DNA of 52,778 nucleotides from Hydrurus foetidus (taxonomy: Eukaryota). A program made the translations under genes and the position numbers. Positions within the stretch are counted from its first letter, which is position 1. Every line of letters begins with the position of its first letter. The stretch covers positions 1 to 52,778 of the forward strand of contig UYFQ01000090.1 in assembly GCA_900617105.1 (NCBI GenBank), given 5' to 3'. Below, in pieces: positions 25,468-48,424 of this stretch. Below the pieces are notes generated by a model. The model made no database searches and was not told where the DNA came from. It was given only the letters and a program-made list of their open reading frames with translations.

Positions 25468-26284
25468 TATGTATTTATTAATCTCCCGCGAGAGTAAAAA
25501 ATCGTGATTTTGCTATGTTTTTATGGCAATTTTTGGCGTTTTTACGAGAAAATGTAACGTTTTTATACCCTTTTCTTACGTTATAATTATAACGCAATAT
25601 CAATTATTTTATTTTATAATATTTTACATATTGTATATTTACTCCATTTTAGCAGTGAAAATACTCCTTCATTTTTCTCTTTTTTTCTCACAATATCATT
25701 TTTATGTCTCTTCTAAATCATAATATCTTGACACCATTTTAGCAGTCATTTTTTTGTATCATATTTCTCTTACATTTTCTCGTAAAAACGCCAAAAATTG
25801 CCATAAAAACATAGCAAAATCACGATTTTTTACTCTCGCGGGAGATTAATAAATACTTATGTAATTACCCTATACCCCCCCCCTTGCTCGTCAGAAATGG
25901 GAGCAAATGGGAGCAATGGGAGCAATGGGAGCAAATAAATCCGTCCACAGTAGATTCTATAATTCAGAGAGGACAACGTGACTTCCTAATATCCGTGTCG
26001 TCCTCTCCATTTTTTTTCAGTGTCTCTCGATTTTATACCTCTTTTGCTCCCATTGCTCCCATTTACTCCCATTCTTACTTTTATCTTTAATATCATCTAA
26101 TTCATTCCACTATTCATTGTTCTATCATAATTTATGATAGTTCTTTTTCATTCGTAGTGTAACAAATTATTACACCCCCTTTTTTCTATCCATATATTTA
26201 CAGACCATTCTTTTACTGGATTACATTGGCAGATTTCTCACTTGGATCTATCTCAATTAGAACATCAAACGCACTAATCAGAGA
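25468..26284. repeat. left composite terminal inverted repeat of the PLV
   Basis: 25468-25856 matches the reverse complement of 43571-43951, and ~26078-26284 matches the reverse complement of ~43206-43412. The middle cassette differs between ends. Confidence 0.92.
25896..26076. repeat. iteron-like cassette: 4x ATGGGAGCA(A), spacer with stem-loop, 3x inverted TGCTCCCAT
   Basis: Directly visible; a direct-repeat homologue lies at 31906-32100. Confidence 0.88.
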
Positions 26285-26478
26285 CGCATTTATTATATTC
26301 TAACGCCCCCCGTTGTTCTCTTATCTTAAAAATCATAAAAACATTAAAGCACGTTAAACCTATTATTACCTTATCCGTAAATTTTTGTGTTAGATTGATG
26401 TGTATTTTTTTACCCATTATAATATTTGATACAAAAAAAAACTTTATACTAAAATAGCATTATATTAGTATAAATTTA

Positions 26479-27185
26479 CTAATCACATAGTTCTCTCAGA
26501 TTAGCGTCGAGAATTCCACGACGGTATTTCTGTTGTGTTGATTCGCTATGCATCATACCATCACTAAATTTTAAACGCATTTCTGGCGTTAAATCTGGTT
26601 TTTGTAAAAACTCGCTCACTTTGGAATGTCTTATATAGTTCACCCCCCCATCTATATCTATTTTTTTATTCATGTTAGTGATATAAGTACCAAGACCCGT
26701 CTCTATCTCTTCTGGAAAAAGAAAACCAAGGAGAAGATGACGGTCAGTATACGATACAATAAGAGAACACAATTCAGGAGATAATCTACGAACGATTTTT
26801 CCGTACATATTAGATGTTTTGTAATTATTAAGAGTAATATGACATTTTTCTTTTCTATGGTCAATAAACAAAATATTGTCCGTACCATTATCGTATGGAA
26901 TTATTCGTAATATTCGCAGACAACCAAAATCATCACGAGCAGTCAATTCATCATATAAACTTGCTATGAGGTATCCTTTGGAATCTTTATCATGTCCAGC
27001 GTAAATTCGGTAGGAATTATCGGTGCTGGTTCTGGTATTGCGTTTAGTTCCTTCAATTGCTCCCGACTAATTTTCATTTTGTCAAGAATTCCTTGTTTAT
27101 GCTTCAAATAATATCGTGCTTGCCGATTACGATTTTTTATGGTAATATTTGCTAATTTCTGTGCATCTTCATTTGTATCACTCAT
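26479..27185 (-). pseudogene. tyrosine recombinase, internally deleted or frameshifted
   Basis: LIASLYDELTARDD (R), NYKT (K), NYIRHS (RH), MMHS (H), QKYRR (Y). The N-terminal ORF 26964-27185 joins out of frame near 26990. Confidence 0.82.
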
Positions 27186-27430
27186 TGTATAATAGTATTC
27201 TAAAGAACTCTTTATATTCTAACGTTAGAAATTAAAGTAACATAAAGATAAAATTGTGAATAATGTAATGTATATTACCATGCAATTACCCGATGGTTAT
27301 GAAAATGAATTCATTCAATTTCGTTTTGTCTACGACAATTATCTTCGTGAAGAGATACTTAATTATGTAAAACCCGCTATTTTATGATATTATCACTTTT
27401 GTATCGAAAAATAAAGTCATTATAATATAA

Positions 27431-27601
27431 ATGAGTACAGATACTGAAGATTACAAACAAACTATTGAAGCATATGTCTTATTAATAAAAGAAAACCATA
27501 GATTAATTGCTGAAAACCAAAAACTCAATAGAGTTTTACAACATTACAAAGAAGCCATAGAATATTTGGGGTTTGGGTTATTTGATGAAGATGAAATATA
27601 A
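27431..27601 (+). CDS. small hypothetical coiled-coil protein (56 aa)
   Basis: ATG preceded by TATAATATAA, like other PLV genes; open to TAA at 27601. Confidence 0.5.
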   Translation: MSTDTEDYKQTIEAYVLLIKENHRLIAENQKLNRVLQHYKEAIEYLGFGLFDEDEI

Positions 27602-27631
27602 ATATATAGATACAAAGTAATAAAGAACAAA

Positions 27632-27886
27632 ATGAATACACAAAATGGAAATACACAAATAGATGAAATAGAACTCAAGAGGTTACGATTAATCCAAAAA
27701 CATAATTCAGAGATGTCAGATATTCAAATTGGGATACAAATGCTCAAATTAGACGAAGTACCTGACGCAGTAAGAAAAGCTCTTTATGATGAGATTACTT
27801 ATTCATTTACTGAAAAATGGAATTATTACCGAAAAGAAATGCACAAATTAGATGATGAGATTAGTGATTTAAAAAAGTATTATTAG
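27632..27886 (+). CDS. hypothetical protein
   Basis: 84 aa ORF tiling the viral gene array. Confidence 0.55.
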   Translation: MNTQNGNTQIDEIELKRLRLIQKHNSEMSDIQIGIQMLKLDEVPDAVRKALYDEITYSFTEKWNYYRKEMHKLDDEISDLKKYY

Positions 27887-28000
27887 TATACAATAAAAAC
27901 CCATTTTTACCCCATTTTTTCAATGTCCAATCAAATTGATTTGGATTTGTATCAAACTTTATAACCATATAAAGAATAAACCAGTTATATATTATACGGA

Positions 28001-28225
28001 ATGCCACCAAAACTGACAGAAGAAGAGCGAATTGCCTCAGATTTAAGAAGGGCAGAATATGCCAGAAATTGGCGTGCTAAAAATGCCGAAAAGTTTGAAG
28101 CTTATATGCATGATTAATATATTGCGAACAAGAAACTTATCAATGATAGAAGGAATGAAAACGCAAAAAAACAGCGAATTAGGGCAAAAATAACGACCCC
28201 TGAAAAAATTGATTCAAAAATTTAG
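28001..28225 (+). pseudogene. small basic protein with premature stop
   Basis: MPPKLTEEERIA..YARNWRAKN..MHD*YIANKK; the frame continues after the stop. Confidence 0.5.
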
Positions 28226-28270
28226 GAATACTTTATAAGAGTATAAAGAATTCATACAATATATTATATT

Positions 28271-29256
28271 ATGGATAATAGTGAGATTGTAAAATTACAC
28301 GTGGAAAGTAAGGTTAAATTTATTACCGATGACGATTTGAAAGTTTTTATAAAAGAAGTACAAGGGGTATTCAAGGACGAATTGGAAGAAACGATTTCGC
28401 TAGGGCAGACACATGATTGTGAACGTATTCTGGAAATACAATACATGATACGGAAATATATCATAGACAACCAGCATCGGATTAATTTCAGTGAAAATAT
28501 AACGCTCAGAGAAAGTTCACCATATTCATTGACAAGTTTATTTGGTCTTTACATGATGGTTGTAGCAGATGTTGAACCTATAAAAACCGTAGTTGATGTT
28601 TTACGACAAGTGGAGCATACTTATTACAGAAGCATGGATAGATTTATTGAAGCAGATGCAAGTGAATTATACGCAGTAAGAGCGGTATTTTATGGAACTG
28701 AAATTCATCAAAATATGTTATGTTGTTGTAGTCATAAATGTCATATTGAAAATATGGGAATTATAAAAAATATGATTACTAACTACCACGTTGTAATCGG
28801 TTGCGATTGTATTAAAAAAACTATCTCATTGATAAAGAGGTGATAAAACAAGAACAACAGAAAACTAATAAATTTCTTAAAAATAAGGAAAAATAACTTG
28901 CTATAAGAACACAAAAAAAAATAGAAAAATGTAGATTAGAAAGACGAAATGAAGAAGAATATGAAAGACGTTGTGAAATTACAAGGATAGAACTAATAAC
29001 AGTTACAGTAACAGAAAAAGAAAAAGAAGAAGATGAGAAGAAACGTGAAATAGAAAATGCAATAGTTATGAGAAGGACTGAATTGGTAAATGATATAAGG
29101 AGGAATAATTTCCCCTGTTATATCCAAGTTGGGTATCGAGATAAGGATACTGCAAAAACACTTGGAGCTTGGTGGGACAATGATGGGAGGTCATGGTATA
29201 TCCGCCCTAATTCTATGAATATTTACACATTATTAGAAAAATACTATAAATTCTAA
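28271..29256 (+). pseudogene. disrupted gene with Cys/His cluster and C-terminal DUF5710-like domain
   Basis: CCCSHKC..VIGCDCIKK, a charged linker, then YIQVGYRDKDTAKTLGAWWD..SWY. Confidence 0.6.
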
Positions 29257-29430
29257 AAAAATATATTATTATAAAATGTTTTTTTTTATGTTATTTTTAT
29301 GCAGAAATACCATACAAAAACGATGTCCAATAAAAATTGATTCTGATTTTATAAAAAGTAATAAGTATAACACAACGGAATAAGTATATAAAGAATAAAC
29401 TCCATGTATATTATCTAGCAGTAATATACA

Positions 29431-31881
29431 ATGTCCTATATTCTCAACGAACGTATTCCACTCGAAAAATCTATCTTCATTCACGAAATGCCATTCAAGG
29501 AATTCAAGCAATATTGTAAGTCATGCAGTAATGACGATGAACGCAAGATACTTTTCAATAAGATCAAGCGAATTTGTAACGAAAATATTATCAACAATGG
29601 CTCTGTTACAAGAGAGTATAAATACAGTAATTCTATGGAACATTATGGAAGGTTATGTTCCAATGGAATGCAGGGGGTCAAGAAATCATTCAGGGGGTTC
29701 TTGATGAGTGATACTACTGATATTGATATGGATAATGCTCACCCTGTAATATTGAGTTATATTTGTAAGAAAAATGAAATCGACTGTACTCATATTGATT
29801 ATTACAACAATAATCGGGAAGAAGTGCTATGTTCTTTTCCAGATAAGACAAGAGATGAAGCTAAAAAACACCTATTAAAGTGTATAAATAACGATAAACA
29901 TAACAAGAATGACAAACACGAATTCTATAGAAAATGGGATAATGAAACGAAGAAACAACAATTATCACTTGGTAATATTGAAGAGTATAAAATGATTGGT
30001 AAGACAGTACCCGATGATAGAGATTACAATATTAAAGGTTCTACTATGTCAAGAATTTTATGTACGGTTGAAGATAAGATACTACAAGTTGTACTAAAAA
30101 TTATTGAAAAAGAAAAACTTGAAACCGCTACACTGATGTACGATGGTTGTATGATTTATGGTGACCATTACAATAATAAAGAACTATTGGAGAAAATCAC
30201 AGTAGGGGTTGAAGAACAATTCGCTGGATTGAATATGAAATGGAGTTGTAAACCACACAATAAAGATATTCTTATTCCTGATGGTTGGAAATCGAAGAAA
30301 ATGGAGAAACTATTGAAGCAGACAATTCCTGTTGAAAGAAGTGAAGTAAAAGAGGTTGAAGAAATTGTAGGAGTCATGGAAGGAGATGATTCGGGTGCAT
30401 CAAAAATAATATTGAATGCTTATCCTCACTGGAAATGCTGTAATGATGTATTATACGCATTCGATGATGAGACAGGAATGTGGAGTGATAAAGTAGAGAT
30501 ACATAATCGTGTTATATCACGATATAGTGAGTATTTAGATATTATCAAAATGAATAGTGAGGGGGAACTAAAAAGAACAGGGCGTAATTACGCCAAAAAT
30601 AACCAGAAGAGAAAGGATATTTTCCCCTTTATTAGAGAGAATTGTGTTGATAATGATTGGATTGTAAGAACTGAAACATCATCTCTCGGAAAAATCCTAT
30701 TCTTAAAAGGACACTATGATTTTAAACGTTCGAAATTTATGACGGGTAAAAAAATATCCGCAACAGACGATGAAAAGAAAAACACTGACGAAGAAAACGG
30801 ATTTAACCCTGAAATCGTATTCTTTTATAGAGTCGATCATGAACTCACTGATTTTACAGATGATGATATGGAGTATATGGATTCCATACAAGAACGCCTT
30901 TTCACACTACCACTTGGTAAAGACGTCGGGGATTACCTGACCCTTAATCTAGCACGGGCTTTTTCGGGAGACATTACGATAAAAAGGATTTTGTTTGGAC
31001 TTGGTATGAGCAACAGTGGAAAGGGAATTTTGACTAAAGCCTGTCAATTATCAATGGGCCAATATTGTGGAGTTTTTACGGGTGAAAATCTTGCGTTTAA
31101 TAACGTAAATAATGATGAAGCACAGAAGATGAGATGGGCAATGCTTTTACGAAATAAACGTTTAATCATTAGTAATGAATTATCAACGAAAAAGATGTTA
31201 GATGGAAACCTTATCAAGAAATTGGCGTCTGGCGGTGATACTATACAGGGGCGATTACACGGGCAACATGAAACCGATTTTAAACCGCAATATCTTGCTA
31301 TTCTCCTTGCTAATGACATGCCAGAAATAAAACCCTTCGACACAGCAATTCAAAATAGAGTTAGGGTATATGCTTATACAAAAGCTTTCGTAGATGAACC
31401 CAGAAATGAATATGAACTGAAGAAAGACCCTAATCTTGATAATGAGATGAAATCACGCCTATTCCAGCGTTGCTTCATTGGATTACTCATTAGAAAATAT
31501 CTGGAATTCCAAGACAACGGGTGCATAGAAAATGAACCTAATGAAGTAGTAGTGGCACGTAATGATTGGATAGGTACAACTGAAGAAAACGATATTATCA
31601 ATAAATTCCAGCAGTTTTATGAAATTACAAATTGTGAAAGTGATTTTGTACCAAGTAGAGAAATTGAGAATTATATTCGCACCATGGGTGATATGTCATA
31701 TAAAAAATTTGTGATGGAATTAAAGAAAAATTGTATTTTAAAATCACTAAAAAAAGTTAAAAATGATGGGGAAACAATCAATAAAAAAAGTATCCAAGGT
31801 TGGTTTGGTATTAAACGCATTGAGGATAATATCAACCCTGATAATATCAATCCTAATGATCTCATTACTGAAGAGTTGTAG
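29431..31881 (+). CDS. TVpol (PolA-like primase/polymerase) fused to D5-like SF3 helicase
   Basis: YGRL, DIDMDNAHPVIL (motif A-like), LMYDGCMI (motif C-like); GMSNSGKG Walker A, ISNE Walker B, LLAND motif C, IKKLASGGDTIQGR. Intact 816 aa. Confidence 0.88.
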   Translation: MSYILNERIPLEKSIFIHEMPFKEFKQYCKSCSNDDERKILFNKIKRICNENIINNGSVTREYKYSNSMEHYGRLCSNGMQGVKKSFRGFLMSDTTDIDMDNAHPVILSYICKKNEIDCTHIDYYNNNREEVLCSFPDKTRDEAKKHLLKCINNDKHNKNDKHEFYRKWDNETKKQQLSLGNIEEYKMIGKTVPDDRDYNIKGSTMSRILCTVEDKILQVVLKIIEKEKLETATLMYDGCMIYGDHYNNKELLEKITVGVEEQFAGLNMKWSCKPHNKDILIPDGWKSKKMEKLLKQTIPVERSEVKEVEEIVGVMEGDDSGASKIILNAYPHWKCCNDVLYAFDDETGMWSDKVEIHNRVISRYSEYLDIIKMNSEGELKRTGRNYAKNNQKRKDIFPFIRENCVDNDWIVRTETSSLGKILFLKGHYDFKRSKFMTGKKISATDDEKKNTDEENGFNPEIVFFYRVDHELTDFTDDDMEYMDSIQERLFTLPLGKDVGDYLTLNLARAFSGDITIKRILFGLGMSNSGKGILTKACQLSMGQYCGVFTGENLAFNNVNNDEAQKMRWAMLLRNKRLIISNELSTKKMLDGNLIKKLASGGDTIQGRLHGQHETDFKPQYLAILLANDMPEIKPFDTAIQNRVRVYAYTKAFVDEPRNEYELKKDPNLDNEMKSRLFQRCFIGLLIRKYLEFQDNGCIENEPNEVVVARNDWIGTTEENDIINKFQQFYEITNCESDFVPSREIENYIRTMGDMSYKKFVMELKKNCILKSLKKVKNDGETINKKSIQGWFGIKRIEDNINPDNINPNDLITEEL

Positions 31882-31905
31882 AAAGACAAAAAAAAACTTT
31901 CCTAG

Positions 31906-32100
31906 TAATGGGAGCAAATGGGAGCAAATGGGAGGAATGGGAGCAATGGGAGCAAATAAACCGTCACTATGTACATTCTAAAAATACGTGACGACGAGAC
32001 GTCGTTTATGACTTCCTAATAAACGTCGTCTTCTTTTTTTTTAGTATCTCTGGATTTTTAATCTCTTTTGCTCCCATTGCACCCATTTGCTCCCATTCTT
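31906..32100. repeat. second iteron-like cassette immediately downstream of the helicase gene
   Basis: 5x ATGGGAG(C/G)A, central CGTTTAT-GACTTCCTA-ATAAACG stem-loop, 3x inverted units. Confidence 0.88.
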
Positions 32101-32113
32101 AATATTATATTAG

Positions 32114-32626
32114 TTATACCTTATAAACAATTTCTCCGACATATTTCTTCTTGTTCTTCATTATAGTATCGTATTGTTTGTTTATAGAATCGAGTGAGAA
32201 TTCGTGTAAGACCCCGCCATATTCGGTTTGTACCTGTCTGAATGCGTTTTGTAATTGTGTCCAATTTGCGTAGAACCATTCACTTTTCATACTTGGGCGT
32301 GAGGGAAATATAAGCATTTTTGCGTCAGTTTCTTTTAAATTAGCGATAAGTTTCTTTTCCATTTGCCTGTATATTTTCTTTTTGTCTTCTCCATTTTGTA
32401 TCCTTGGGTAAGATAAGAAAAAGCAGATGTAGAGACCAAGTGGGTAGTACGTGTGGTAATTCTCTATACGCCCCGCTAGATCTTGTGAAGTCATACCGAC
32501 CTTGAATACAGCATTTTTTTTCTTGTCTAATTTTTCGAACGGTAGGAGACAATACAATCCGTTTTTACCTTTGAGGAACAGTTCATCATGTGTCACATTA
32601 TACTTCTTTATCTTAACGGGAACCAT
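32114..32626 (-). CDS. GIY-YIG superfamily (T5orf172-like) protein
   Basis: GLYCL..VFKVGMT..LAGRI..MEKKL..SEWF pattern. Confidence 0.75.
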   Translation of the reverse strand: MVPVKIKKYNVTHDELFLKGKNGLYCLLPFEKLDKKKNAVFKVGMTSQDLAGRIENYHTYYPLGLYICFFLSYPRIQNGEDKKKIYRQMEKKLIANLKETDAKMLIFPSRPSMKSEWFYANWTQLQNAFRQVQTEYGGVLHEFSLDSINKQYDTIMKNKKKYVGEIVYKV

Positions 32627-32910
32627 TATAATATGGAAGTATATTTTTACTCACTCAAAATCACGGAATAAATTCACCACTCAAAATCACGAAAATTATC
32701 GAAAAACCGTAAAAATTAGTCCCCCCTTTTTTTGGCAAAATCTCGTCGTTTTAGACCTAAATCCGATAAATTTTTTTGGGGGGACTAAAAAGTGTCCGTT
32801 AAAGATTTTTAGTTTCGTCCTTTTTGGTCGAAACTTGAGTGGTAAAAACACCGATGTACGTTTTTTCGTTTTTTTGTATCTCTTATTTTATTTTCTATAT
32901 TTAGTATAAT

Positions 32911-33393
32911 ATGCCAAGAAAAGTCGTTGATAAGTTAGAATCTTTAGTAGAAGAAGTCCCCGTAATGGTAGATATTCCCGAAGATAGTGAAGTAGAAGAA
33001 GAACCAAAGACGATAGAAAAGAGTAAGAAACCACGTACGGAAAAACAGAAAGAGGCGTTTTTGAAGGTCATCGAGAAACGAACGGAAGCGAGAGCTATAC
33101 GAGCAAATAATAGAGAGAAGGAAGCGAAGGAGAAAGCAGAAACCGATGCGAAGGAGGCACTGGAGAGAAAGAAGTTGCTGGAGAAAAAGATTGTGAAAAA
33201 AGCAAATATTATTGCGAAAAAGGAATTGAAGAAGCATATTGCCCTTGATGATATTAGCAGTGATGAAGATGAGAGTGACTCTGAAGTAAAAAAGGAACTT
33301 GTACGGTTCAAGAGGTCAGTTGTGGAAAAAGTGATGAAAACAACAGTTCCAGCAGTTCCGGTTCCAGTTGTACCAAAATACAGATTCGTGTAG
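32911..33393 (+). CDS. Lys/Glu-rich coiled-coil hypothetical protein
   Basis: 160 aa, KKPRTEKQKEAF motif, TATAATATG start, directly upstream of the ATPase. Confidence 0.7.
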   Translation: MPRKVVDKLESLVEEVPVMVDIPEDSEVEEEPKTIEKSKKPRTEKQKEAFLKVIEKRTEARAIRANNREKEAKEKAETDAKEALERKKLLEKKIVKKANIIAKKELKKHIALDDISSDEDESDSEVKKELVRFKRSVVEKVMKTTVPAVPVPVVPKYRFV

Positions 33394-33418
33394 ATAAAAT
33401 AGCAGTATACTACATAAA

Positions 33419-34177
33419 ATGTCAATAAGTTTAAAACATAATATACGCCCCGCTTTTCCAATAGCACGAATGAATTGTGACGATGGTCTTGATTCACGAT
33501 TGAATATGTACTCACTGACAAGTTTGATGAATTCACATGAATGTACGGTTTTATGTGGTGCGCCGAAGAGTGGTAAGACGTCTCTATTATGGGGTTTTTT
33601 TAAACACCCGAAATTATTAAAAAAAGTATTCCATAATATTTACATTTTTCAACCAACCGTAAGTGGTGAATCAATGAAGGACAATATCTTCAGTTGTCTT
33701 CCAGATAATCAGCGTTTCGATAAATTGAATTACGATGATTTAAGTGATGTTTTAGAACGAATTACCAATAGCGAAAAATGGGAGGAAAACTGTGTAATTT
33801 TCGATGATCAGGCTGCGTATTTAAAGCAAAAAAGCACACGTACTCTATTTGAAGAATTGGTGTACAATCGTAGGCATCTGAGGACAAATATTTTCTTCTT
33901 AACACAGGGATGGAAGAAAATCCCTTTAGATCTCCGCAAGGTACTTTCTAATATATTTTTATTCAAGGTTGCCAAGAAAGAGTTGTATACAATCTGGGAC
34001 GAAGCAATAGAGGAGAATGTGGATTTAGTGCCAAAAATAAGTAAATTAGTTTTTGATAAGAAGCATAATTTTTTATTTGTGAATGTGGAGAGTAAGAGAA
34101 TGTTTAAAAACTGGGACGAAATTCTAATTTTCGACCCCGACGATGATGATGAGGAAGAGGCGATAAAAACAATATAA
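33419..34177 (+). CDS. A32-like (FtsK/HerA) genome packaging ATPase
   Basis: GAPKSGKT Walker A, CVIFDD Walker B, RRHLRTNIFFLTQ, IPLDLR. Confidence 0.92.
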   Translation: MSISLKHNIRPAFPIARMNCDDGLDSRLNMYSLTSLMNSHECTVLCGAPKSGKTSLLWGFFKHPKLLKKVFHNIYIFQPTVSGESMKDNIFSCLPDNQRFDKLNYDDLSDVLERITNSEKWEENCVIFDDQAAYLKQKSTRTLFEELVYNRRHLRTNIFFLTQGWKKIPLDLRKVLSNIFLFKVAKKELYTIWDEAIEENVDLVPKISKLVFDKKHNFLFVNVESKRMFKNWDEILIFDPDDDDEEEAIKTI

Positions 34178-34201
34178 AGATATAGGACAATATAAGATAT
34201 A

Positions 34202-34639
34202 ATGCCAAGAAAAGCGATTGATTACAGTAAATCACTCGTGTATCGTATAGCGAATAAGGATACAACGTATTATATAGGTTCGACGACTAATTTTAGAAAA
34301 AGAAAAAGTCAACATAAAAGTAATTGTAAAAATGTAAAATCACCAGAATACAATAAAACATTATACCAGTTTATTCGTGAAAATGGTGGTTGGAGTGATG
34401 AGTGGGTTATGGTTCTCGTTCAGTCATATCCTAATTGTAAAACATCAATTGAACTATTGAAATATGAACGGGAACATTATGATATTTACAAACCAGAAAT
34501 GAATGTAAAGAAACCTTATTTATATGAAGGTGAGAAAGAAGAACATTGTAAAGAATATAAAATAGAAAAAGTGAAATTGAATACTCTGGAAAAGCCAAAA
34601 CCAAAAACAAAAGTAAAGACGGAGACAAAATTCATTTAA
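34202..34639 (+). CDS. GIY-YIG endonuclease
   Basis: VYRI..YYIGSTTNFRKRKSQHK..LYQFIRENGGW..YEREH. Confidence 0.88.
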   Translation: MPRKAIDYSKSLVYRIANKDTTYYIGSTTNFRKRKSQHKSNCKNVKSPEYNKTLYQFIRENGGWSDEWVMVLVQSYPNCKTSIELLKYEREHYDIYKPEMNVKKPYLYEGEKEEHCKEYKIEKVKLNTLEKPKPKTKVKTETKFI

Positions 34640-34661
34640 ATATCTAATAGTATCTTAACTA

Positions 34662-35399
34662 ATGTCAATTAAGATACTACTCAACTCAAAAGATAGGGTA
34701 AATAGTGCTACTTCAGCAAATGATTGTGAGTTTCGTGTCAATTGGGGTGCGATATTGGACGATGGAAAATACCGTGTAAGTTATAGCATTTGTAAGCAGT
34801 TAATTCCCGTAATACCAGAAATACCTTGGGTTTTTAGAGTGCAGAGTCCAACATCAACAATACCAACAACAGTAGATGGTTTTACCTTATCAAATAATAA
34901 TGTGAACACTGTTATTGATAGTGTACGTGAGAATGTATTTAATTTTAGGGGTAATGGATTTTTATCATTAAGCGTCCCCACGCCCGTGAATTCAACGAAG
35001 ACATTGTGGGTGATGATTCCGAATATGACTGTAACTAAAAATAATAATGTGTTTAGTTCCCGAAAAATGCCAGTATGGTTTAATCGCACAATTTTTTTAA
35101 GAGCATCTGTTAATTTTGGTGTATCAGGAGGAGGTGATGTTATATCATCAGTAGCACAGACATCAGGTGTATGGAAATTTTACGCAATAACAACAACCGC
35201 AACAGAGACAAAAATATATGTAGATGGTGTGCTTGTAACATCGAGGAATGTGACGTGGGGAGGTGATACAGCAGCGATAAATTTCGGTGCGTATCTTGGT
35301 GCATCGTTTTTAACGGGCCTTCTGGACGATATGAGGTTATATTCGAGTACTCTCACAGCAACAGATATAAATGATTTATATACAAGAACATTATTATAA
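34662..35399 (+). CDS. N-terminal penton-like segment fused to a LamG/concanavalin-like domain
   Basis: ILLNSKDR..VNWG resembles the N-terminus of ORF 35694. WKFYAIT..KIYVDG..FTGLLDDMRLY-like ending (FLTGLLDDMRLYSSTLTATDINDLY) is a LamG signature. Confidence 0.75.
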   Translation: MSIKILLNSKDRVNSATSANDCEFRVNWGAILDDGKYRVSYSICKQLIPVIPEIPWVFRVQSPTSTIPTTVDGFTLSNNNVNTVIDSVRENVFNFRGNGFLSLSVPTPVNSTKTLWVMIPNMTVTKNNNVFSSRKMPVWFNRTIFLRASVNFGVSGGGDVISSVAQTSGVWKFYAITTTATETKIYVDGVLVTSRNVTWGGDTAAINFGAYLGASFLTGLLDDMRLYSSTLTATDINDLYTRTLL

Positions 35400-35417
35400 T
35401 ATACCTATTATTGTATA

Positions 35418-35672
35418 ATGTCTAATATAACTTTGCATGTAGATTTGGGTCAAGATACAGTTACAACAACATCACCAACACAAGTTGTATCGAGAAACAC
35501 GAGAGAATTAGGAAGATTTATACCCCGTGTAGATGTGAATCAGACAATTGAATTACGTAGTAGACCACAGAATAACACTTTTAGTGTCAAATTAATGGAT
35601 AATTTGACAAATTTAGTATCAACTTTAGATTATGAATATATCATACAAATTTGTTTTGAAAAGATAGAATAA
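35418..35672 (+). CDS. C-terminal half of a penton-like beta protein
   Basis: Aligns by eye to the C-terminal two-thirds of ORF 35694 (DLGQ/NLGQ, SPT, GRFIP/GSIIP, EYIIQICFEKI/EYLLALNFEKI). Confidence 0.7.
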   Translation: MSNITLHVDLGQDTVTTTSPTQVVSRNTRELGRFIPRVDVNQTIELRSRPQNNTFSVKLMDNLTNLVSTLDYEYIIQICFEKIE

Positions 35673-35693
35673 TTTCTTAACCTAGATTATATC

Positions 35694-36149
35694 ATGTCAA
35701 TTTACAATGTACTAATCAATAGTAAAAACAGAATTCCAGCACTAACATCATCATCAAATTCAAAATACTACTTCAATTGGGGGGGTGTCCTACCTGAAGG
35801 GCAGTATTTGCTTCGTTGGGGTTTTACGTGTTCTGGAGTCGATACAACAGTAAATAAAATAGGATTAGTATCAATAAATTTAGGACAGAGTAGTGTGTAT
35901 ACAGCATCTCCAACAAATGTGGGTGCATCAACCACAAATATAATTGGTTCTATCATCCCAAATGAAATTGGTACATCTTCGTTTTTGTATGGCGATTCCA
36001 ACACAAATAATATTGTCTATCTTGGTAATGCTCCATCAGTGAATGAATTTACAGTGACAATAACTTCATTAGACGATTCATTGTGGACGGATTCTGCAGG
36101 ATCTGAGATTCCAGAGTACCTTTTAGCTTTAAATTTCGAGAAAATATGA
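35694..36149 (+). CDS. small single-jelly-roll / minor capsid-like protein
   Basis: VLINSKNR N-terminus, FTVTIT and EYLLALNFEK C-terminal strands; structural gene context. Confidence 0.6.
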   Translation: MSIYNVLINSKNRIPALTSSSNSKYYFNWGGVLPEGQYLLRWGFTCSGVDTTVNKIGLVSINLGQSSVYTASPTNVGASTTNIIGSIIPNEIGTSSFLYGDSNTNNIVYLGNAPSVNEFTVTITSLDDSLWTDSAGSEIPEYLLALNFEKI

Positions 36150-36165
36150 ATAGGTATAGTATAGA

Positions 36166-36893
36166 ATGTCATATTTTACATACAACCTACAGACAATGGC
36201 AGGACTGGAGAGTGTCAGTGATGGTGTTGCAACCTTGGAAAATGGAGTATTAGAATGTGATAGGGTAATAGCAGATGATATTGAGACAAATAGTTTAAAT
36301 ACAATAAATTTGAGTGTATTGAATAATATTACAGCGGGTGAATCGATTGCAATAGGACGTGATGTAGCAGTCGGAAATAGTATTGTCTCTCCGAATTTGT
36401 ACACAACAAAATTAGTATCAAGTATTTTGGAATGCAAAAAGTTAAAAACAGAAAATATTCATTTGTATAATAATTTACAATCATATGATGATACAAATGT
36501 GGGATATATAAAAACTGCAATAATAGCATCATCATCATTATTATTTACAAATACAGTAAGAGTATCGTCTCTTTACCTTTACCAATCGGTGTATATACCA
36601 TATCATATTGTTTTACTCTGGGATTGTCAGGTGTGTCACTTCCATCACTACATAGTTTATCTCATGGACTTTCTACAGATAATCAGAATTTTAATGTGAT
36701 ACAAAAAAAGAACTATCAAAACTTGGTGTATAACGACAGTTTATCTTATGTAACATTTTACGAAACGGGATTTTTCCATATTACAGATTATAATAGTTCA
36801 TTGTATCTATTAATAAGACATAATACGGCAGTAAATACCTCGAGTAGAATACTAATAGAGAACGCCAAAATATCAGTATTACGAATAGCATAA
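36166..36893 (+). pseudogene. putative fibre or structural protein, frameshifted near 36580-36625
   Basis: Two overlapping ORFs; beta-rich repeats; located in the structural cluster. Confidence 0.5.
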
Positions 36894-36925
36894 ATAATAT
36901 TATAATATAACCTTATAGTAATATA

Positions 36926-38374
36926 ATGTCAAATATTTCAGCATTAAATTTGGCAGTAAGCGGGACTTGTGGAATAAGTGGTGGTGTCAGTTTATCATCA
37001 CCTCTAATCAGTGGATCATCTTGTTCTTATCAAGGTATTACAACAAATACATTGACCACAACTGGTGCAGTTCTTCATAACTCTCTACCAATATGCAATG
37101 TATTACCATCATTGCCGAATCAGTTAGTATCAAAGGGATATACTGATATACAGAACAACGCACAGAGCGTCTTAATTAGTGATTTAGAAATACGAGCAAC
37201 AGCAATAGAAGATTTAAATGTAGTTCAAGATACACGACTTGCAGATATAGAAAATACAAATGCATTGCAAGATGTATCAATAAGCGATATTGAAGTTGTA
37301 AATACCAACCAAAGGACGAGATTAGATGGAATTGACACTTTGAATAATACGCAAAATACAGATATAAGTGCGTTACAGACAAGGGCAACAGCGATTGAGG
37401 GTGTCAATACAACGCAGAACTCGAATATTACAGCATTACAGACAAGGGCAACAGCAATTGAGGGTGTCAATACAACGCAGAACACGAATATCACAGCATT
37501 ACAGACACGTGCAACAGCAATAGAAACGGTCAATACTACACAGAATACGAGTATCACTGCGTTACAGACACGTGCAACAGCAATAGAAACGGTCAATACC
37601 ACGCAAAATACGAATATTACAGCATTACAGACACGTGCTACAGCAATAGAAACCGTGAATACGAATCAGGCGACATCAATCACGAATATAGATACATTGA
37701 ATACAACACAGAACACCCGCATAACCAATGTGGAAAATACAAACACTAATCAATCAAACTTATTGACAACTATGATTACTTTAAACACGACGCAAAATGA
37801 CCGCCTGACAGCGATTGAGGGAGTAAATACGACTCAAGGGACAAATATCACTGCATTACAGACACGTGCTACAGCAATAGAGACCGTAAACACTAATCAA
37901 GACGCAGTAAATACCACACAAAATACTAATATTACAGCTTTACAGCAGAAGACGACTCCAATTGTATATACAACCCCCGTAGCGGGTGCATTAACATCAT
38001 TAACGTCATCATTAGACATACTACCTTATGTATCAAGTACATTCTTAAAAGTGTATAATATTAACAATCAAGCAATCACTTGTTTAGGACAGGCGATTTT
38101 CGCTGGGTTAGGGATCATAACGACACGATTACAATTAGGTAATTTTGGGACGATAATGACTGGAATGTCTTTTGGTAATACTTTAAGCGTCGTTGGGAAT
38201 AATGTGGTGAATTTTCCAGCATCATCATTTTCAGGAGGAGTTGTACCAAGAGTGCTAATTAGTCCATCAGGGAATGGTGTTTTTTTTGTAGTCAGCAGAA
38301 CCCTTATATCATTTACTTATTCCGCATCAGTAGCGGGTGTGAATGTAGATTGGATCGCATTACAGTCAGTTTAA
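36926..38374 (+). CDS. fibre-like protein with 21 aa coiled-coil repeats
   Basis: TRATAIE(G/T)VNTTQNTNITALQ repeats (63 bp units, ~37345-37945) and a beta-rich C-terminal head ending VDWIAL. Confidence 0.78.
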   Translation: MSNISALNLAVSGTCGISGGVSLSSPLISGSSCSYQGITTNTLTTTGAVLHNSLPICNVLPSLPNQLVSKGYTDIQNNAQSVLISDLEIRATAIEDLNVVQDTRLADIENTNALQDVSISDIEVVNTNQRTRLDGIDTLNNTQNTDISALQTRATAIEGVNTTQNSNITALQTRATAIEGVNTTQNTNITALQTRATAIETVNTTQNTSITALQTRATAIETVNTTQNTNITALQTRATAIETVNTNQATSITNIDTLNTTQNTRITNVENTNTNQSNLLTTMITLNTTQNDRLTAIEGVNTTQGTNITALQTRATAIETVNTNQDAVNTTQNTNITALQQKTTPIVYTTPVAGALTSLTSSLDILPYVSSTFLKVYNINNQAITCLGQAIFAGLGIITTRLQLGNFGTIMTGMSFGNTLSVVGNNVVNFPASSFSGGVVPRVLISPSGNGVFFVVSRTLISFTYSASVAGVNVDWIALQSV

Positions 38375-38395
38375 ATATCAATATATCACATACAA

Positions 38396-38626
38396 ATGAC
38401 ACAATTCATTGAGTCATCTAATTCTATAACAGTAATAACTCTAACATTCGGTTTTTTATCAATGGCGTTAATCACAATAACAACGTGTATTTTCAAGGTG
38501 AAGTGTCGTGAGTGTGTTTTAGGGTGTTGTAAAATTACCCGTGATGTATCAGCAGAAAACTTGGAATTGGAGATAGAGAGCAGAACTAATCGTAAAGATA
38601 ATATACCCCCGCCATCAATCGTTTAG
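38396..38626 (+). CDS. small membrane protein with Cys cluster
   Basis: N-terminal hydrophobic helix followed by KCRECVLGCCKITRD. Confidence 0.6.
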   Translation: MTQFIESSNSITVITLTFGFLSMALITITTCIFKVKCRECVLGCCKITRDVSAENLELEIESRTNRKDNIPPPSIV

Positions 38627-38673
38627 TTTTAGCATTATATTAATATGTTTTAATATAATATACTAAAAGTAAA

Positions 38674-38937
38674 ATGGGATTTTTTGGATCTTTGTTAGGA
38701 GGTGGATTAGGTGCTATCGGTTCTAAATTTTTACCCATTCCAGGCGTGGATGGTCAGGTGCTCGGAACAGCCCTTGGTGGACTAGCCCCGTTCAAGACAG
38801 GCGGTGCAGTTGGTCCAAGAAATAGAGCGTGTCTACTTCATAAGAATGAATACGTATTGCCCGCAAATGCTAAACCAACAAAAGCACAACGAGCAATCGT
38901 AGCAAAAAACAAGCGTAATGCCAAGAAAAAGAAGTAG
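38674..38937 (+). CDS. small Gly-rich protein with N-myristoylation consensus and basic tail
   Basis: MGFFGS (MGxxxS), Gly-rich amphipathic N-terminus, LLHKNEYVLP, KKKK tail. Confidence 0.65.
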   Translation: MGFFGSLLGGGLGAIGSKFLPIPGVDGQVLGTALGGLAPFKTGGAVGPRNRACLLHKNEYVLPANAKPTKAQRAIVAKNKRNAKKKK

Positions 38938-38998
38938 ATGAAAAAAAATGATATAGAAAAAAGTTAATACATTATAATACATAAAGCGAGGTTTTATA

Positions 38999-39677
38999 AT
39001 GCCAAAGAAACCGATTAATTATAAGAAAACGTGTGTTTACAGATTAATTTACAACGATATTACCTGTTATGTTGGTTCAACTACCAATATGAGACAGCGT
39101 AAATCACAACATAGACGTGGTTGTTATAACGAGAAAAATAAGGACTACAATTATCCATTGTATAAGTTTATTCGTGAGAATGAAGGGTTTAACAACTGGA
39201 AAATGATTATGGTTCATGCGTACCCTGAGTGTAAAACAAGTGAAGAGTTAAGAATGCATGAGAGGAATCACATTGAAGAACTCAAACCATCGTTAAACGT
39301 AAATCGCCCTATTGTAACAGAGGAAGAAAAAAAATGATGCAAATGACCGAAGCAGATAAGCACGTTTAGAAAATCCAGAACAATTAAAACAATGGAGATT
39401 GGAAAATGTAGAACACGTAAAAAAATATAAGTTACAATATTGTGTTGATAATGCTGATAAAATTAGAGAGTACGCAGATGCACATAGAGATGAAATAAAC
39501 TTAAAAGGTAAAATGTATCGTGAAGCAAACGCCGAAAAGATAAAGGAGCGAGATAAAAAGACAACTTGTATGTGAATGTGGACGTGTTGTAAATTTACGC
39601 CATAAAAAAAGTCACGAGAAATTAAAAATTCACATAAACTTGATGGAAGCAAAAAAGAAGTAAAGCATGATACATAA
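38999..39677 (+). pseudogene. second GIY-YIG endonuclease, disrupted, with C-terminal CECG..H..H finger
   Basis: Paralogue of 34202-34639 (VYRL..YVGSTTNMRQRKSQH). Frameshift in the A-run near 39330 and a later stop. Confidence 0.8.
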
Positions 39678-39707
39678 TAAAATATATATAAGAATCTTTT
39701 ATAATGT

Positions 39708-40228
39708 CTAACCACCTGTGTTTGTTTTTTTTCTAACCTCTTTTCCCGTGCCTTTTGGTTACGAAGTAATCGACGTGTTTCTATCTCGTCTGGGGTCAAT
39801 GGGTGTTGAGCCCGTGTTCGTCTTGCTATTGGAGTAGTATTATCATAGTAGAAATTATCATCAGGTGTTTTGTATAAGTCCGTAAGATTTACAACCGCTT
39901 CATCATATTTTCTTTTACTTGGAACTGGAATTTTACTAACTCGTATTCCTTGAGGGGTCAATGTCTGTATTCCAACGCTATTTGTAGGTATTCTAACTGG
40001 TTCAAATACAGTTTCTTTTACCGTTCCTACTGTATTATAAATAATTGGAGGAGATGGTTCACCTTGTAAAGTAATATACTGTGGTTGTTGGCGATACGCA
40101 GGTTGTGGAGCAGTCCTTTTTGCCCTTGCTTTGGTGGTGTTAATATTTACTACGACGCTTTGTGATTGTTTCTGTTTCTGCTTCAACCCCTTTTTAGATA
40201 GTTTTTTGGTAATTCTCTTTTTTGCCAT
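39708..40228 (-). CDS. basic putative core protein (KQKQKQSQSVVVNI motif)
   Basis: Lys/Arg-rich. The called ORF runs on to 39293, probably through a homopolymer frameshift near 39730; the likely stop is TAG at 39708-39710. Confidence 0.6.
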
Positions 40229-40312
40229 TTACAATACCAATACATTAAAATAATCTTGAAAAACTATTTTTGAAAAATTCTGGTATATCACGATTCAGTA
40301 CGTTATTAAACT

Positions 40313-40933
40313 TCATGTTGTTGGTTGAAAATAAACTGTATCCCGTGCTTGGTTTTGTAAAAGTTCATTGCTTTGTATCTTATCTATTGCCGTAGTTGCA
40401 ACCGCTCCTACATCTGTAGTTGTATTTACAATTTTACGAAATTGTTCATTACCTTCAAATAATTGTCTAGTATCCTGTAAAACAAACTTTTCGAGAGCGT
40501 CTGTATTTAACCCGTTAGAAATGAGTAGTGAGATTATAAAGTTCTGACAGTTGTTGTCTTGGGCTTTGTAACTGAAATAAGAACCCCCCATTTTGCTTTT
40601 CGTTTTTGAAAGCATATCATTGAGAGTCAGTCCAGCATTGATAGGTACAGGTAGAGTTTCCGTCCCTATCCTCATTTTTGAGAATTTGTAAATTTGTATC
40701 ACTTCGTTTTTCTCAATAACATGTAAAGAGTTTTTAGTTTGAACAACCATAAAGAGATGATACAAAGTGTCATAATCCGTATTTTCCATCTTTTTCTCCA
40801 ACTGTCCTCGTGATGTAATATTGAGTAGGAATTTTAATACTTTTGACAGCGGGGTTCGATTTACCGTGATTTTCGTGATTTCATCGTCGCCTATCCTATG
40901 GATAATCTTTTGAACAGGATTTAAATATGACAT
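40313..40933 (-). CDS. permuted papain-like (PPPDE/NlpC-P60 type) peptidase candidate
   Basis: LYHLFMVV His precedes Y..QDNNCQNF Cys. The likely start is MSYLN after TATATAATG. Confidence 0.62.
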   Translation of the reverse strand: MSYLNPVQKIIHRIGDDEITKITVNRTPLSKVLKFLLNITSRGQLEKKMENTDYDTLYHLFMVVQTKNSLHVIEKNEVIQIYKFSKMRIGTETLPVPINAGLTLNDMLSKTKSKMGGSYFSYKAQDNNCQNFIISLLISNGLNTDALEKFVLQDTRQLFEGNEQFRKIVNTTTDVGAVATTAIDKIQSNELLQNQARDTVYFQPTT

Positions 40934-40958
40934 ATTATAGTATAAGAGAATATAAAAA

Positions 40959-41902
40959 ATGCTGACGGTTGAGTACACTCGTTACATATCTCTCAACACT
41001 CAACATTGTATCAAAAAACAAAGTAGTGGTTCCGGAAATACTTTATACGAATCTTCCTTTTTATCACAAATATCATTTGATTTAAAAAACGTCTTAAAAG
41101 ATGATGATGATATATTGTATTCTCATATTAATATTATAAATGCTCAGATTCCTGTGTCATTCTACCTTATCAATTACACAACAAATGTATTAGCATATAA
41201 AATAAATAGTGGTGTGATACAACTGATGACAATAGAGCGTGGAAATTACAATATTACGTCGCTTATGAGTGTAATCAAGCAGGGGTTTTTAAACGCAGGA
41301 TATGCATTTACAATAACATTTAATAAGGTTACAGGTAAATTGTTATTTGTATCACCAATCGGAACAACCTTTACGATATTATCCAGTAGTTCAGGTGGAA
41401 TTATCAATGAGATTATCGGTTTTGATTCTGTGTCTTCTTACATATCAACAGGTAATATCTTAAACGCCGAACATCCTGCATCTTTAATCGGAATAAAGAA
41501 ATTGAAAATCAGTTCTTCCGCTTTACATACAAGTGGTTTATCTAGTGGTGGAGGGGTGATTTACTCGGAATTATACCAGTGAGTTCTGTAGCAACAGGAT
41601 TGATACTATATGAGAACAATAGTTCAAAAAAAGGAGGTTTAATGAGAAATAAGGAAATATCAAATATTGACATTACAATTACAGATGAAAATAACCGCTA
41701 TATAAACTTCAATAATGTAGAGTATAGCATTACTCTGGCAATTACAACAACCCGTATTTTAAAAGAAAGAATTAATTCTCTATTTAGGGATCCTACACAA
41801 CAAATACTGGATACAAAGCAACCACAAAATGTAGAAACAAATACTGGGGGAGATGAAAATGATTTAGATTATTTTATGTATAAGCACGGGATACAAATAT
41901 AA
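40959..41902 (+). pseudogene. minor capsid protein (penton), frameshifted near 41555
   Basis: AQIPVSFYLIN, IERGNYN, FNKVTGKL, IIGF, then IPV..ILYEN..IDITITDEN..INFNNVEYSITL. Confidence 0.85.
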
Positions 41903-41949
41903 TGCGTTTTTATTCAAATTAATCTCTTTTGATACACTATACTTAAAGA

Positions 41950-43275
41950 ATGAGTTTAATGCTTCCAAAAGAGATTAATTACGACCTTCCTGTCTCACTT
42001 CCATCTGGCGTCCAGACATTTGATATTAACGTCCTTCCTGTGAATGGAACAAGTTTCAGTTGTGCTACGGCGGGTGCTTACGTCCAGTTCGATCTACCTG
42101 CCCGTGCTGGATATATGGACGGTAAAACCCTCGCCCTCCGTTATAAATATACTTGTGTTTCTACGGGTGTGACTCGTATCCGTGCTTGTCCTTTCTTTAC
42201 CCCTATTCTCCGTCTTGAAACCATCTTCGGATCTCAGCCAGTCCAGAACATAAATGAGTACGGTCAACTTCAGAATATGCTTATTAACCTGACGCATAAC
42301 GTGGCGGACAAAATTGGTAGTGTGACGGGTTACGGTTGGGCTCTCGAAGGTGCTGATAAGGTACATACATGGCAGTCGACTGATGGACGTTCTTGCGGAC
42401 AAAATGAGAAGGGTTCGTTTTGGGGTCCACTGAAGGGGTGTATTCTATCCGAGGCGGATAGGTATATACCAACAGGAATGATGCCAAATATCCGTATTCA
42501 ACTTACTCTTGATTCCATTGCCAACATCTTTGCTCCTCCATCGGCTGCTGCAGTAACACTAAATCTTGAAACAGGTACTCCAGTTTCAAGTGCAACAGTA
42601 ACGCCAACTGATTTTACCTTGAGCGATTTTGTGCTTTCTTACAGCCAAATTGACTTTGGTACTGAAGTAGACAATGCTGTTCGTTCTATGGGGGAGAAAA
42701 TTACAATTAAGAGTCAATCTTTCAATAGTTCATCTAACCCTATCAACTCAGGAACAGCAGGTCAGTTTGAGTTGATTTACTCACAGAAAATGGCATCCGT
42801 TAAATCACTTTTCCTTCATTGTGGTTCAGGTTCTCAGAACGGTAAATTTGATGCATTCGAAATTACATCTGGTGGTGATGTTCAATTTAGTATAGCATCT
42901 CGTCTTTATCCACAGAGTCGTCCACTTTCGTCAGCAGTAGCTTCTCGTGGTACGCTTTTCTTGGAATTGAAGAAGGCCGTGGGCAGTTTATATAACTAGC
43001 ATAACAGCATGAGTATTAACCAGCAAGAGTATTTGACCCTAGGAACTGCATCCACCGTTGTAAATCCTGCCAAGGTTTATTATGCTGTGAATACCGAACA
43101 AATACAGTCGAATTCCGTTCTTTTGAGTGGGGTTAGTACTCAAAATTCCCCCGTGACTGTCCGATTAAACATAGCTACTGCGACGGCGTTTTCCGTGTCA
43201 GCAACTCTGATTAGTGCGTTTGATGTTCTAATTGAGATAGATCCAAGTGAGAAATCTGCCCGTGTAATCCAGTAA
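41950..43275 (+). pseudogene. major capsid protein (double jelly roll) with one in-frame TAG at 42997-42999
   Basis: ORFs 41950-42999 and 43009-43275 are in the same frame (~440 codons). VQFDLP..YMDG..LRY, QNINEYG, YIP..M..IRIQLTL, VKSLF, LLSGVST; adjacent to the penton. Confidence 0.85.
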
Positions 43276-43951
43276 AAGAATGGTCTGTAAATATATGGAT
43301 AGAAAAAGGGGGTGTAACAATTTGTTACACTACGAATGAAAAAGAACTGCCGTAATTTACGGCACTACAAATGAAATAGTGTAATGAATTAGATGGTATT
43401 TAAGATAAAAAGTGAGGAGTGAGGAGTGAGGACTTGTTTTAAAGTCGTATAGAGGAGTTGAAACAAACATTTAAAAAAAGAAAAAGTTTGTTTGAACTAT
43501 ATTAAATAACATTTTTTAAGGTCCTCACTCATCACTCCTCACTTTTAATCTTAAATAGCATCTAATAACTTATGTATTTATTTATCCCCTGCGAGAGTAA
43601 AAAAACGTGATTTTGCTTACTTTTAATGGCATTTTTTGGCGTTTTTACGAGAAAATGTAAGAGAAATATGATACAAAAAAATGACTGCTAAAATGGTGTC
43701 AAGATATTATGATTTAGAAGAGACATAAAAATGATATTGTGAGAAAAAAAGAGAAAAATGAAGGAGTATTTTCACTGCTAAAATGGAGTAAATATACAAC
43801 ATGTAAAATATTATAAAATAGAGGCGTTATAATTATAACGTAAGAAAAGGGTATAAAAACGTTACATTTTCTCGTAAAAACGCCAAAAAATGCCATTAAA
43901 AGTAAGCAAAATCACGTTTTTTTACTCTCACAGGGGATAAATAAATACATA
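43206..43951. repeat. right composite terminal inverted repeat of the PLV
   Basis: Contains the MCP 3' end, the AGTGAGG cassette (43388-43567) and the fold-back module (43571-43951). Confidence 0.92.
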
Positions 43952-46900: not shown

Positions 46901-48424
46901 ATTTCGACTTGTTTTCGTGTAGACGTTGGTCGTGGTGCTACGCGGTTTTTGAAAACTTTCCACTCTGGATCCCGTACGGGTAGTCCAAAGGGGGGGAATT
47001 CGCGCGGGCTCTGGTCCGAGTTTGTTGTTGAATAGCTTTATGTGTTTGACACAAATTGCTCTAATTTTTGCTTGTTGTTCAGGGGTACCATCGATTTGTA
47101 TTAGATCGATGAGGTACATTTTGTCCTCTGTTGGATTGTCTTGGAAAGGAGCGAAGGTATCCTTCGACTTGTAGTCAATCTCTTCGGGTCCGAAGGGTTG
47201 AACCTCTGGGAGTTCTTCACGCTCCCGGAGTAGAGCAGCAACTAAACCACGTGTTTGGGCTGGTGCCTTGGATGAGGGAGTAGGAGTAGCTAATTCCGGG
47301 CTCCTGTCGGTTGTTACACCTAAATCATTTTGTCGGGGAGGTGACAACAAAACTGCTGCCTCGACCGTAGAGTGCAAAATGAACTCATCAGAATCTAGCC
47401 TAGCCGCTGCCGCAGCTAAGCTAGTGGGACACCCACATGAAGGAGTGCATGTCTTGCTTGTACAAGCACCTCGAGCCACCAGGTCGTCTTGCCATCGACT
47501 GTCTGTGTCTGAGGGTTTTATCCCCTCTCGGCTAGTTATAACCGGAGGTAAGGTTGGACTTGTAATACTCGTAACTGTGTCCGACTCTGTATCTAACATG
47601 AGTGGAACATCCACGTGGTCTAATACCATGTTTGTGGATTGATTCAGTTTTTGTAATGAGTGAATTTTTTCATTTTGGATATTTTCCGGAGATTGGAAGA
47701 ATTCCGGAATGATTTTAACCAAATTTAGTTTTTTTATGGTCTCCAATCCTAAGATTAGGTCGACTTTGGAATCTTCTGCAATTCGCACCGGAAGAGAAAA
47801 AGTGTATTTTAAACCGTTTTTGTTAAATGATACAACAATATCAAGGACAGCAGTGGATTCAATACATTGATTATTTAGACCCGAACACATCCATATGGGA
47901 GAGTCGGTGGTGCGAAGTTGGGGTTCACCACGTAGGCCCCGAAGGACTCTACGATTGATTACGTCCCCAACTTGACATCCGGTGTCGATTTGGGCTAAGG
48001 CGGCCATGCCGTTATTTTGGTCCATAGCTGGAGGAAGATTTGGGTGGGGACCGGTCTCGATCGCGGCGATCTTTGTCTTTGTCCTTTTCCGCTTGGCGCG
48101 AGTCGTCTTTGCGGTTGGAGTCGCGGTCGCGGCTGTCAACTCGGTCGCCAAAGCGGTAGCCGGGGATTGGGTCTGAGGAAGATATATTGTTACTTGTAAG
48201 TAATCATCAATCTCGTTAGGTATGATTGTTGATAAAAGCATTTGCATGTTTGGCAAAATACGATTTTCTGAGATATTTTCCGCATACGGAATATTGGACT
48301 CACGTTTTCCTTTGTACCCGCGGTCTTTGATGTCGCGAGTATCGCGGTTTTCGTTGCGATCGGTGTCGCGATTGTCTTTGCGGTCGTTGTCGCGGTCCCA
48401 GTGCCCAGATCCTGGCAAGGCCAC
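43952..48424 (-). mobile_element. Ty3/gypsy chromovirus (family B), 5'-truncated: PR-RT-RH-IN-chromodomain, PPT and partial 3' LTR
   Basis: QIDTGC, YLDD, MTDASDYGIG, HHCC, LNIDFIGP/LRSDNG/IVER, FHVKWLNY..NTWEPW; PPT AGAGAGAGGGGGG; LTR starts TGTGACCCGCAC at 44126. Confidence 0.93.
44338..48424 (-). pseudogene. pol: gypsy pol with multiple frameshifts
   Basis: ORFs 46886-48424, 45961-46881, 45509-45796, 44649-45524 and 44338-44724 carry consecutive domains. Confidence 0.9.

Follow-up and report, generated by a model that had tools for sequence, protein, structure and literature searches.

A candidate two-gene penton-type jelly roll with an exchanged LamG domain in an endogenous Polinton-like virus

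The window, i.e. the whole 52,778-nt stretch of DNA analyzed here, carries at positions 25468-43951 an 18.5-kb block that, from its gene layout, is an endogenous, partly decayed copy of a Polinton-like virus (PLV). The element is low in GC and bounded by terminal inverted repeats (TIRs). Its genes include those for an A32 ATPase, a primase-helicase-like protein, two GIY-YIG nucleases, a fibre-like protein and, probably, the minor and major capsid proteins; the capsid and fibre labels are in part presumptive. The A32 ATPase and a length of 15-40 kb with TIRs in a eukaryote genome are two of the features by which a PLV is recognized. On both sides (772-25448 and 44338-48424) it is flanked by remnants of LTR retroelements (RT, RNase H, integrase, SH3, CCCH zinc fingers). 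The features of the element are as follows.

25468..26283, no strand: left terminal inverted repeat, from self-comparison
33419..34177, + strand: A32 packaging ATPase (PF04665, E 2e-8)
34202..34639, + strand: GIY-YIG endonuclease (family match), missing here in related copies
34662-35399, + strand: ORF 34662, 245 aa, made up of the next three features
34662..34802, + strand: N-piece (residues 1-47) of the split jelly roll, with strands B, C and D
34803..34823, + strand: proline-rich linker of variable length, the approximate boundary of reshuffling between N-piece and LamG
34824..35399, + strand: LamG/ConA-like domain, at about residues 55-243 and in the DE-loop position, followed by the conserved stop
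35400..35417, + strand: AT-rich spacer of 18 nt ending in the start context
35418..35672, + strand: C-piece gene (ORF 35418), 84 aa, strands E to I, Met-Ser start
35694..36149, + strand: ORF 35694, 151 aa, intact minimal penton-fold paralogue without insertion domain
36926..38374, + strand: fibre-like protein with 21-residue repeats, a presumptive fibre
38999-39337: second GIY-YIG
40959..41902, + strand: probable gene for the canonical minor capsid protein (DUF5901 at E 2e-5, under the cut-off; label partly presumptive)
41950..43275, + strand: probable major capsid gene, from size, position and motifs, with no Pfam match
43205..43951, no strand: right terminal inverted repeat, with 91% identity to its left counterpart

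The right TIR overlaps the 3' end of the probable major capsid gene. A rearranged right TIR was considered and rejected; an internal palindrome is present in each TIR. An inverted-repeat pair with the motif AATGGGAGC occurs in two copies (25895-26087 and 31916-32111) that flank the replication module and are possibly origins or recombination sites, and the product of 26479-26946 presumably resembles, by a motif, the C-terminus of a recombinase. In the window copy the minor capsid gene has a frameshift near 41575, the major capsid gene an in-frame stop at 42997-42999 and gene 36166 another frameshift near 36550. Near-identical DNA was found in runs of one organism and in metagenomes from freshwater, sediment and air; no reads matched in the 6% of one RNA run that was covered, a sample too small to bear on expression. 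The host of the element is likely a protist, given what is established for these viruses. The GIY-YIG gene at 34202-34639 is optional, being skipped in contigs of three runs and missing from the related viral contig L003. This contig, which ends inside its LamG gene, keeps the order of the ATPase and LamG genes (1901-4297) behind a different primase-helicase. It was the one true relative obtained from DNA-pattern scans for related neighbourhoods, most of which gave nothing or unrelated loci.

Analysis of the intact ORF 35694 revealed 168 matches within an E-value limit of 0.001 in a set of representatives clustered at 50% identity, and a family profile was built from 125 sequences, leaving out 25 of the 150 listed proteins (those with a length outside 140-172 aa and one apparent chimera). 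The predicted model of ORF 35694 (pLDDT 94.7) was compared with 48,161 chains, and the top seven matches were all virus capsid chains (Z 11.1-7.3), i.e. PBCV-1 6ncl_a6 (Z 11.1), the mavirus penton (Z 10.7, rmsd 2.8, 136 aligned), PBCV-1 8h2i_bG (9.7), Sputnik 3j26_N (9.4) and chains of an aviadenovirus (9.1), EhV-201 (7.7) and an iridovirus (7.3), of which only the mavirus chain is named a penton in its title and the others are taken as pentons from their size. A Foldseek search with this model gave an E value of 6e-6. The comparisons support the prediction that ORF 35694 is a penton-type single jelly roll of eight strands. By sequence, the family had no Pfam or PDB match to named pentons and no significant match to the probable canonical minor capsid gene of the element; its Atlas neighbours carry DUF5901 in 12% of members and V18-19 in 12-19%. 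The family includes tandem two-domain members (P0116, P0164, P0181 and P0206) as well as continuous members of 219-227 aa with a Gly/Thr-rich insert of ~70 residues in later loops (P0097, P0148 and P0190), indicating that inserts are tolerated at more than one place in this small jelly roll.

Exploring the two ORFs upstream, we found that they divide such a domain between them. Residues 1-37 of ORF 34662 align with the start of ORF 35694 (42% identity, E 5e-11) and residues 6-83 of ORF 35418 with its residues 59-151 (31% identity, E 1e-9). On the 125-sequence family profile the N-piece covers positions 3-46 and the C-piece 56-150 without overlap, with profile-profile probabilities of 97.6 and 97.9% for the two pieces. 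This complementary coverage agrees with the initial annotation, in which about 45 aa of ORF 34662 and the whole of ORF 35418 reconstitute a paralogue of ORF 35694. The C-piece is shorter than its counterpart by 11 plus 4 residues. The break falls between the third and fourth strands of the ORF 35694 model (38-46 and 57-61); using strand letters B-I of our own assignment, counted on the model, the first three strands lie in the N-piece and the last five in the C-piece, which places the break in the DE loop, where pentons carry their accessory domain. Five near-invariant residues of the family are retained in the pieces, in 25/25, 30/31, 31/31, 31/31 and 30/31 rows, respectively. The LamG domain is indeed fused to the N-terminal piece, as LamG_3 (PF13385) matched residues 110-237 of ORF 34662 (E 3e-15; 57.1 bits vs a curated cut-off of 27.6) and fold matches of this region span about residues 51-245. 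The TATAATG attributed to the start of the C-piece lies directly at the start of ORF 35418; the same heptamer occurs at six places on the + strand and nine on the - strand of the element, several of which are gene starts.

ORF 34662 and ORF 35418 share a reading frame, with a single TAA and 18 nt between them. ORF 35694 is in that frame too, and the three genes (34662-36149) have only two TAA stops between them; the common frame is probably due to chance or to descent from a tandem gene. In variant contigs the first spacer measured 12 and 17 nt, of which the former keeps the frame, as does the 18-nt spacer of the window, and the latter comes from a single contig with a depth of 4.8. A variant of the second spacer, in front of the intact gene, is 19 nt long.

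The homologues of both pieces keep the lengths of the split form. Among 30 homologues of the C-piece, searched at 46-147 aa and 62-95% identical to ORF 35418, 28 are 83-84 aa long, one has five extra N-terminal residues and one is truncated, and the Met-Ser start is present in all 31 aligned rows. Homologues of ORF 34662, searched at 134-429 aa, a range that includes the size of a fusion (336 aa), are 239-246 aa in 23 of 30 cases, six being partial and one 265 aa long, and no fused form near 336 aa was found among them. In the alignment, from which the six partial homologues were left out, all 25 rows stop right after LamG. Longer fused forms were likewise absent from 7,992 candidates of 157-2000 aa, a result that by itself weighs little. 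The longest contigs of eight N/C pairs, and of three triples that include the intact gene, are of equal size, which suggests that the two genes are adjacent in divergent relatives. Variant contigs from four runs, several of which bridge the LamG stop, carried 23 substitution rows near the junction and none at the stop or the ATG. In one contig of run X9, with loose ends, LamG is followed by a TAG stop and then by no ATG at the expected place. Together, the alignments support the view, favoured already by the initial annotation, that the split is not decay, and they make it a conserved feature of two separate genes; both the split and the second start recur in other copies, and no related copy encoding one continuous ORF was seen in these searches. 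We also observed, in loose contig ends over 35438-35694, a second, more divergent type of C-piece that shares this start; the two types coexist in runs X1, X3, X8 and X9.

Modular exchange of LamG had also been suggested, and the two parts of ORF 34662 appear to have separate histories. The correlation of identities between N-piece and LamG was 0.05-0.13, compared with 0.46-0.77 between equal-sized LamG segments; pairwise identities are not independent, and the values are read only against this within-LamG control. Six proteins with the N-piece type of the window cluster together on the N-piece tree (92/86) and require six changes on the LamG tree, and forcing them together on the LamG tree was rejected (AU p 1.9e-7, 24 rows). 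In P0060, which comes from one contig and was left out of trees and correlations, the N-piece is 96% identical and LamG only 23% identical, i.e. LamG is swapped. The conflict of the trees supports swapping of the LamG tip between relatives.

To model the two chains, we joined both ORFs through an X at the stop and used an alignment (A5) of 40 rows, picked from 28 trial row sets for correct placement, that included 28 rows of the intact family. The linked model had a mean pLDDT of 58 and a pTM of 0.42, with pLDDT values of 79-89 at residues 1-40, 47-59 at 251-290 and 63-89 at 291-336. Its best match was 6ncl_a6, over the model range 1-336 (Z 8.4, rmsd 3.7, 121 aligned), a Z value that is near background for such searches; four other capsid chains span both ends of the model, and residues 51-245 match ConA-like folds. 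Foldseek with the linked model returned ConA-like domains only and says nothing on the jelly roll. Given that the linker and the intact-family rows favour a penton result, the model shows compatibility of the pieces and not binding. Reassembly of the two pieces into one penton-type fold is thus a prediction, for which the five near-invariant residues kept across the pieces provide a stronger, if indirect, argument than the linked model. The two-chain jelly roll with a modular tip that the initial annotation envisaged therefore stands with respect to the penton-like fold, the conserved split and the LamG exchange, and is predicted, from this linked and alignment-guided model, with respect to co-folding; receptor binding and an effect on host range are putative.

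We consider it rather probable that the two gene products form one penton-type domain, likely at the capsid vertex, that likely displays the exchanged LamG as a host-attachment tip. Strands B-D of the first chain are predicted to interleave with strands E-I of the second, and LamG would hang from strand D on the outer face. The two-chain unit and the intact 151-aa paralogue would then build mixed pentamers at the vertices, by analogy with P5 and P31 of tectiviruses. A plausible origin is duplication of a minimal penton, insertion of LamG into the DE loop of one copy and fission just after the insert. Such fission would leave the tip tethered by one end, and neither the length nor the end-to-end geometry of an incoming domain would then be an obstacle; freed from the return to strand E, LamG would be easier to swap.

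An alternative, which we regard as unlikely, is that the two chains make a jelly roll with a role away from the vertex, as an adaptor of a fibre or spike or as an accessory protein, or that the partner of each piece is the intact paralogue instead of the other piece. Alongside the fibre-like gene there is one more probable penton gene in the element, and these two could take over the vertex and attachment roles; the 150-aa family includes the tandem and loop-inserted members described above, and likeness of fold alone says nothing on function. However, the nearest folds are all penton-type capsid chains, viruses with two penton genes are described in the available parts of PMC9617893 and bioRxiv 10.64898/2026.06.19.733378, and the pieces complement each other exactly. 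Read-through of the stop would instead yield a single 336-aa penton that has LamG inserted into its DE loop; the second ATG would then be incidental or give only a minor product. In favour of it, the reading frame runs on from the first ORF to the second across a single TAA and six sense codons, and the 12-nt variant spacer, also in frame, and the contig without ATG fit with it. Against it, Met-Ser is invariant at what would be a loop position, and the start context of ORF 35418 ranks 2 of 657 ATGs (one of the 656 others is higher) by a rough matrix built from 19 hand-picked starts, on which true starts score -6.4 to 6.3, whereas 126 other ATGs rank above the ATG that follows the true break in the capsid gene. 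Moreover, both TAA and TAG are used as the LamG stop; across five long ORFs, 66 codons are CAA/CAG and none inside is TAA/TAG, which makes a general reassignment of TAA/TAG unlikely; and a length divisible by three was seen for 4 of the 10 spacers of the module, in line with chance. We therefore judge read-through to be improbable.

Two further explanations would do away with the split as a feature of the virus. Pseudogene decay or a sequencing error in the window copy might be suspected, as three other structural genes are broken there and the TIRs are only 91% identical. Yet homologues with as little as 56-62% identity retain the lengths of the split form, gene 36166 is broken differently from copy to copy while the LamG stop shows no such variation, and four of the five C-piece substitutions listed, a small and partial sample, are synonymous; we consider decay very improbable. 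An intron that removes the stop and joins both parts has hardly any likelihood, given that the shortest in-frame GT-AG span across the stop (96 nt) would remove ~17 conserved residues of LamG along with the 8 that make up strand E.

If the two products indeed form one vertex domain, a two-chain penton might be a regular design among small DNA viruses of protists, a generalization that we put forward tentatively and hold to be possible rather than probable: the cut in the DE loop would make a socket with a freely recombined tip, and the number of tips would be adjusted through mixed pentamers. Viral proteins of 82-93 aa that resemble the C-piece form Atlas clusters (59, 67 and 162 members), which hint that half-pentons are widespread and overlooked, and such short genes would escape penton profiles. 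One family member, P0182, is a 104-aa protein beginning at strand E; it and the Atlas clusters may be independent half-pentons. A capsid jelly roll stably made of two gene products would be unusual, if true. For the recognition of hosts or helper viruses by PLVs, a variable insertion domain at the vertex has so far only been proposed as determinant. A role of the LamG tip in host attachment is likely, and a recognizable lectin-type tip with naturally swapped alleles makes binding testable on small soluble proteins.

What would be new here is a penton-type jelly roll kept as two genes; DE-loop insertions and pairs of penton paralogues are known already. No two-gene penton is described in the portions available of PMC12220804, bioRxiv 10.64898/2026.06.19.733378, PMC13119691, bioRxiv 10.1101/2022.07.28.501842, PMC11161782 and PMC6905037, in the last of which "split" refers, in those portions, to protein clusters. 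Literature searches whose scope leaves out most subscription journals found no report of a split or bipartite penton, minor capsid protein or jelly roll and, on penton paralogues and heteropentamers, only the PR772 paper; a search on the annotation history of Sputnik V18/V19 found none. Two penton genes are reported for some PLVs in the available text of bioRxiv 10.64898/2026.06.19.733378. PF13385 has been described in PLVs, both in arrays within fibre proteins and, in two chrysophytes, as "monomers" (PMC12220804); the available part of that report draws no link to a jelly-roll fragment, whereas the LamG of the window sits on one, and these monomers might be the same split-penton architecture, unrecognized.

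Among known systems, the pentons of mavirus and Sputnik (PDB 6G41 and 3J26) are single jelly rolls like the model of ORF 35694 (Z 10.7 and 9.4) and carry between strands D and E a surface-exposed insertion domain that, in the sections available of PMC6048507, is proposed to serve recognition of the host or giant virus. Their insertion is a conserved beta-sandwich within one continuous chain, whereas here an exchanged LamG forms the free C-terminal end encoded by the first gene of the pair. In PBCV-1, P1 and P1v1 are penton paralogues of which, according to the available part of PMC9617893, one is minimal and one has a large exterior DE insertion, like the minimal and DE-inserted paralogues of the window element; from chain size, we infer that 6ncl_a6 is P1. 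Unlike the pair studied here, P1 and P1v1 are single chains that form separate homopentamers, without lectin tip or split. The working analogy for the intact gene and the split pair is the tectivirus vertex (PR772/PRD1), where, in the text available from PMC6750898, the minimal P31 and its paralogue P5 with a C-terminal host-recognition part form a 2:3 heteropentamer; P5 differs in having its whole base domain in one chain, followed by a stalk and a trimeric knob, and in serving a virus of bacterial hosts.
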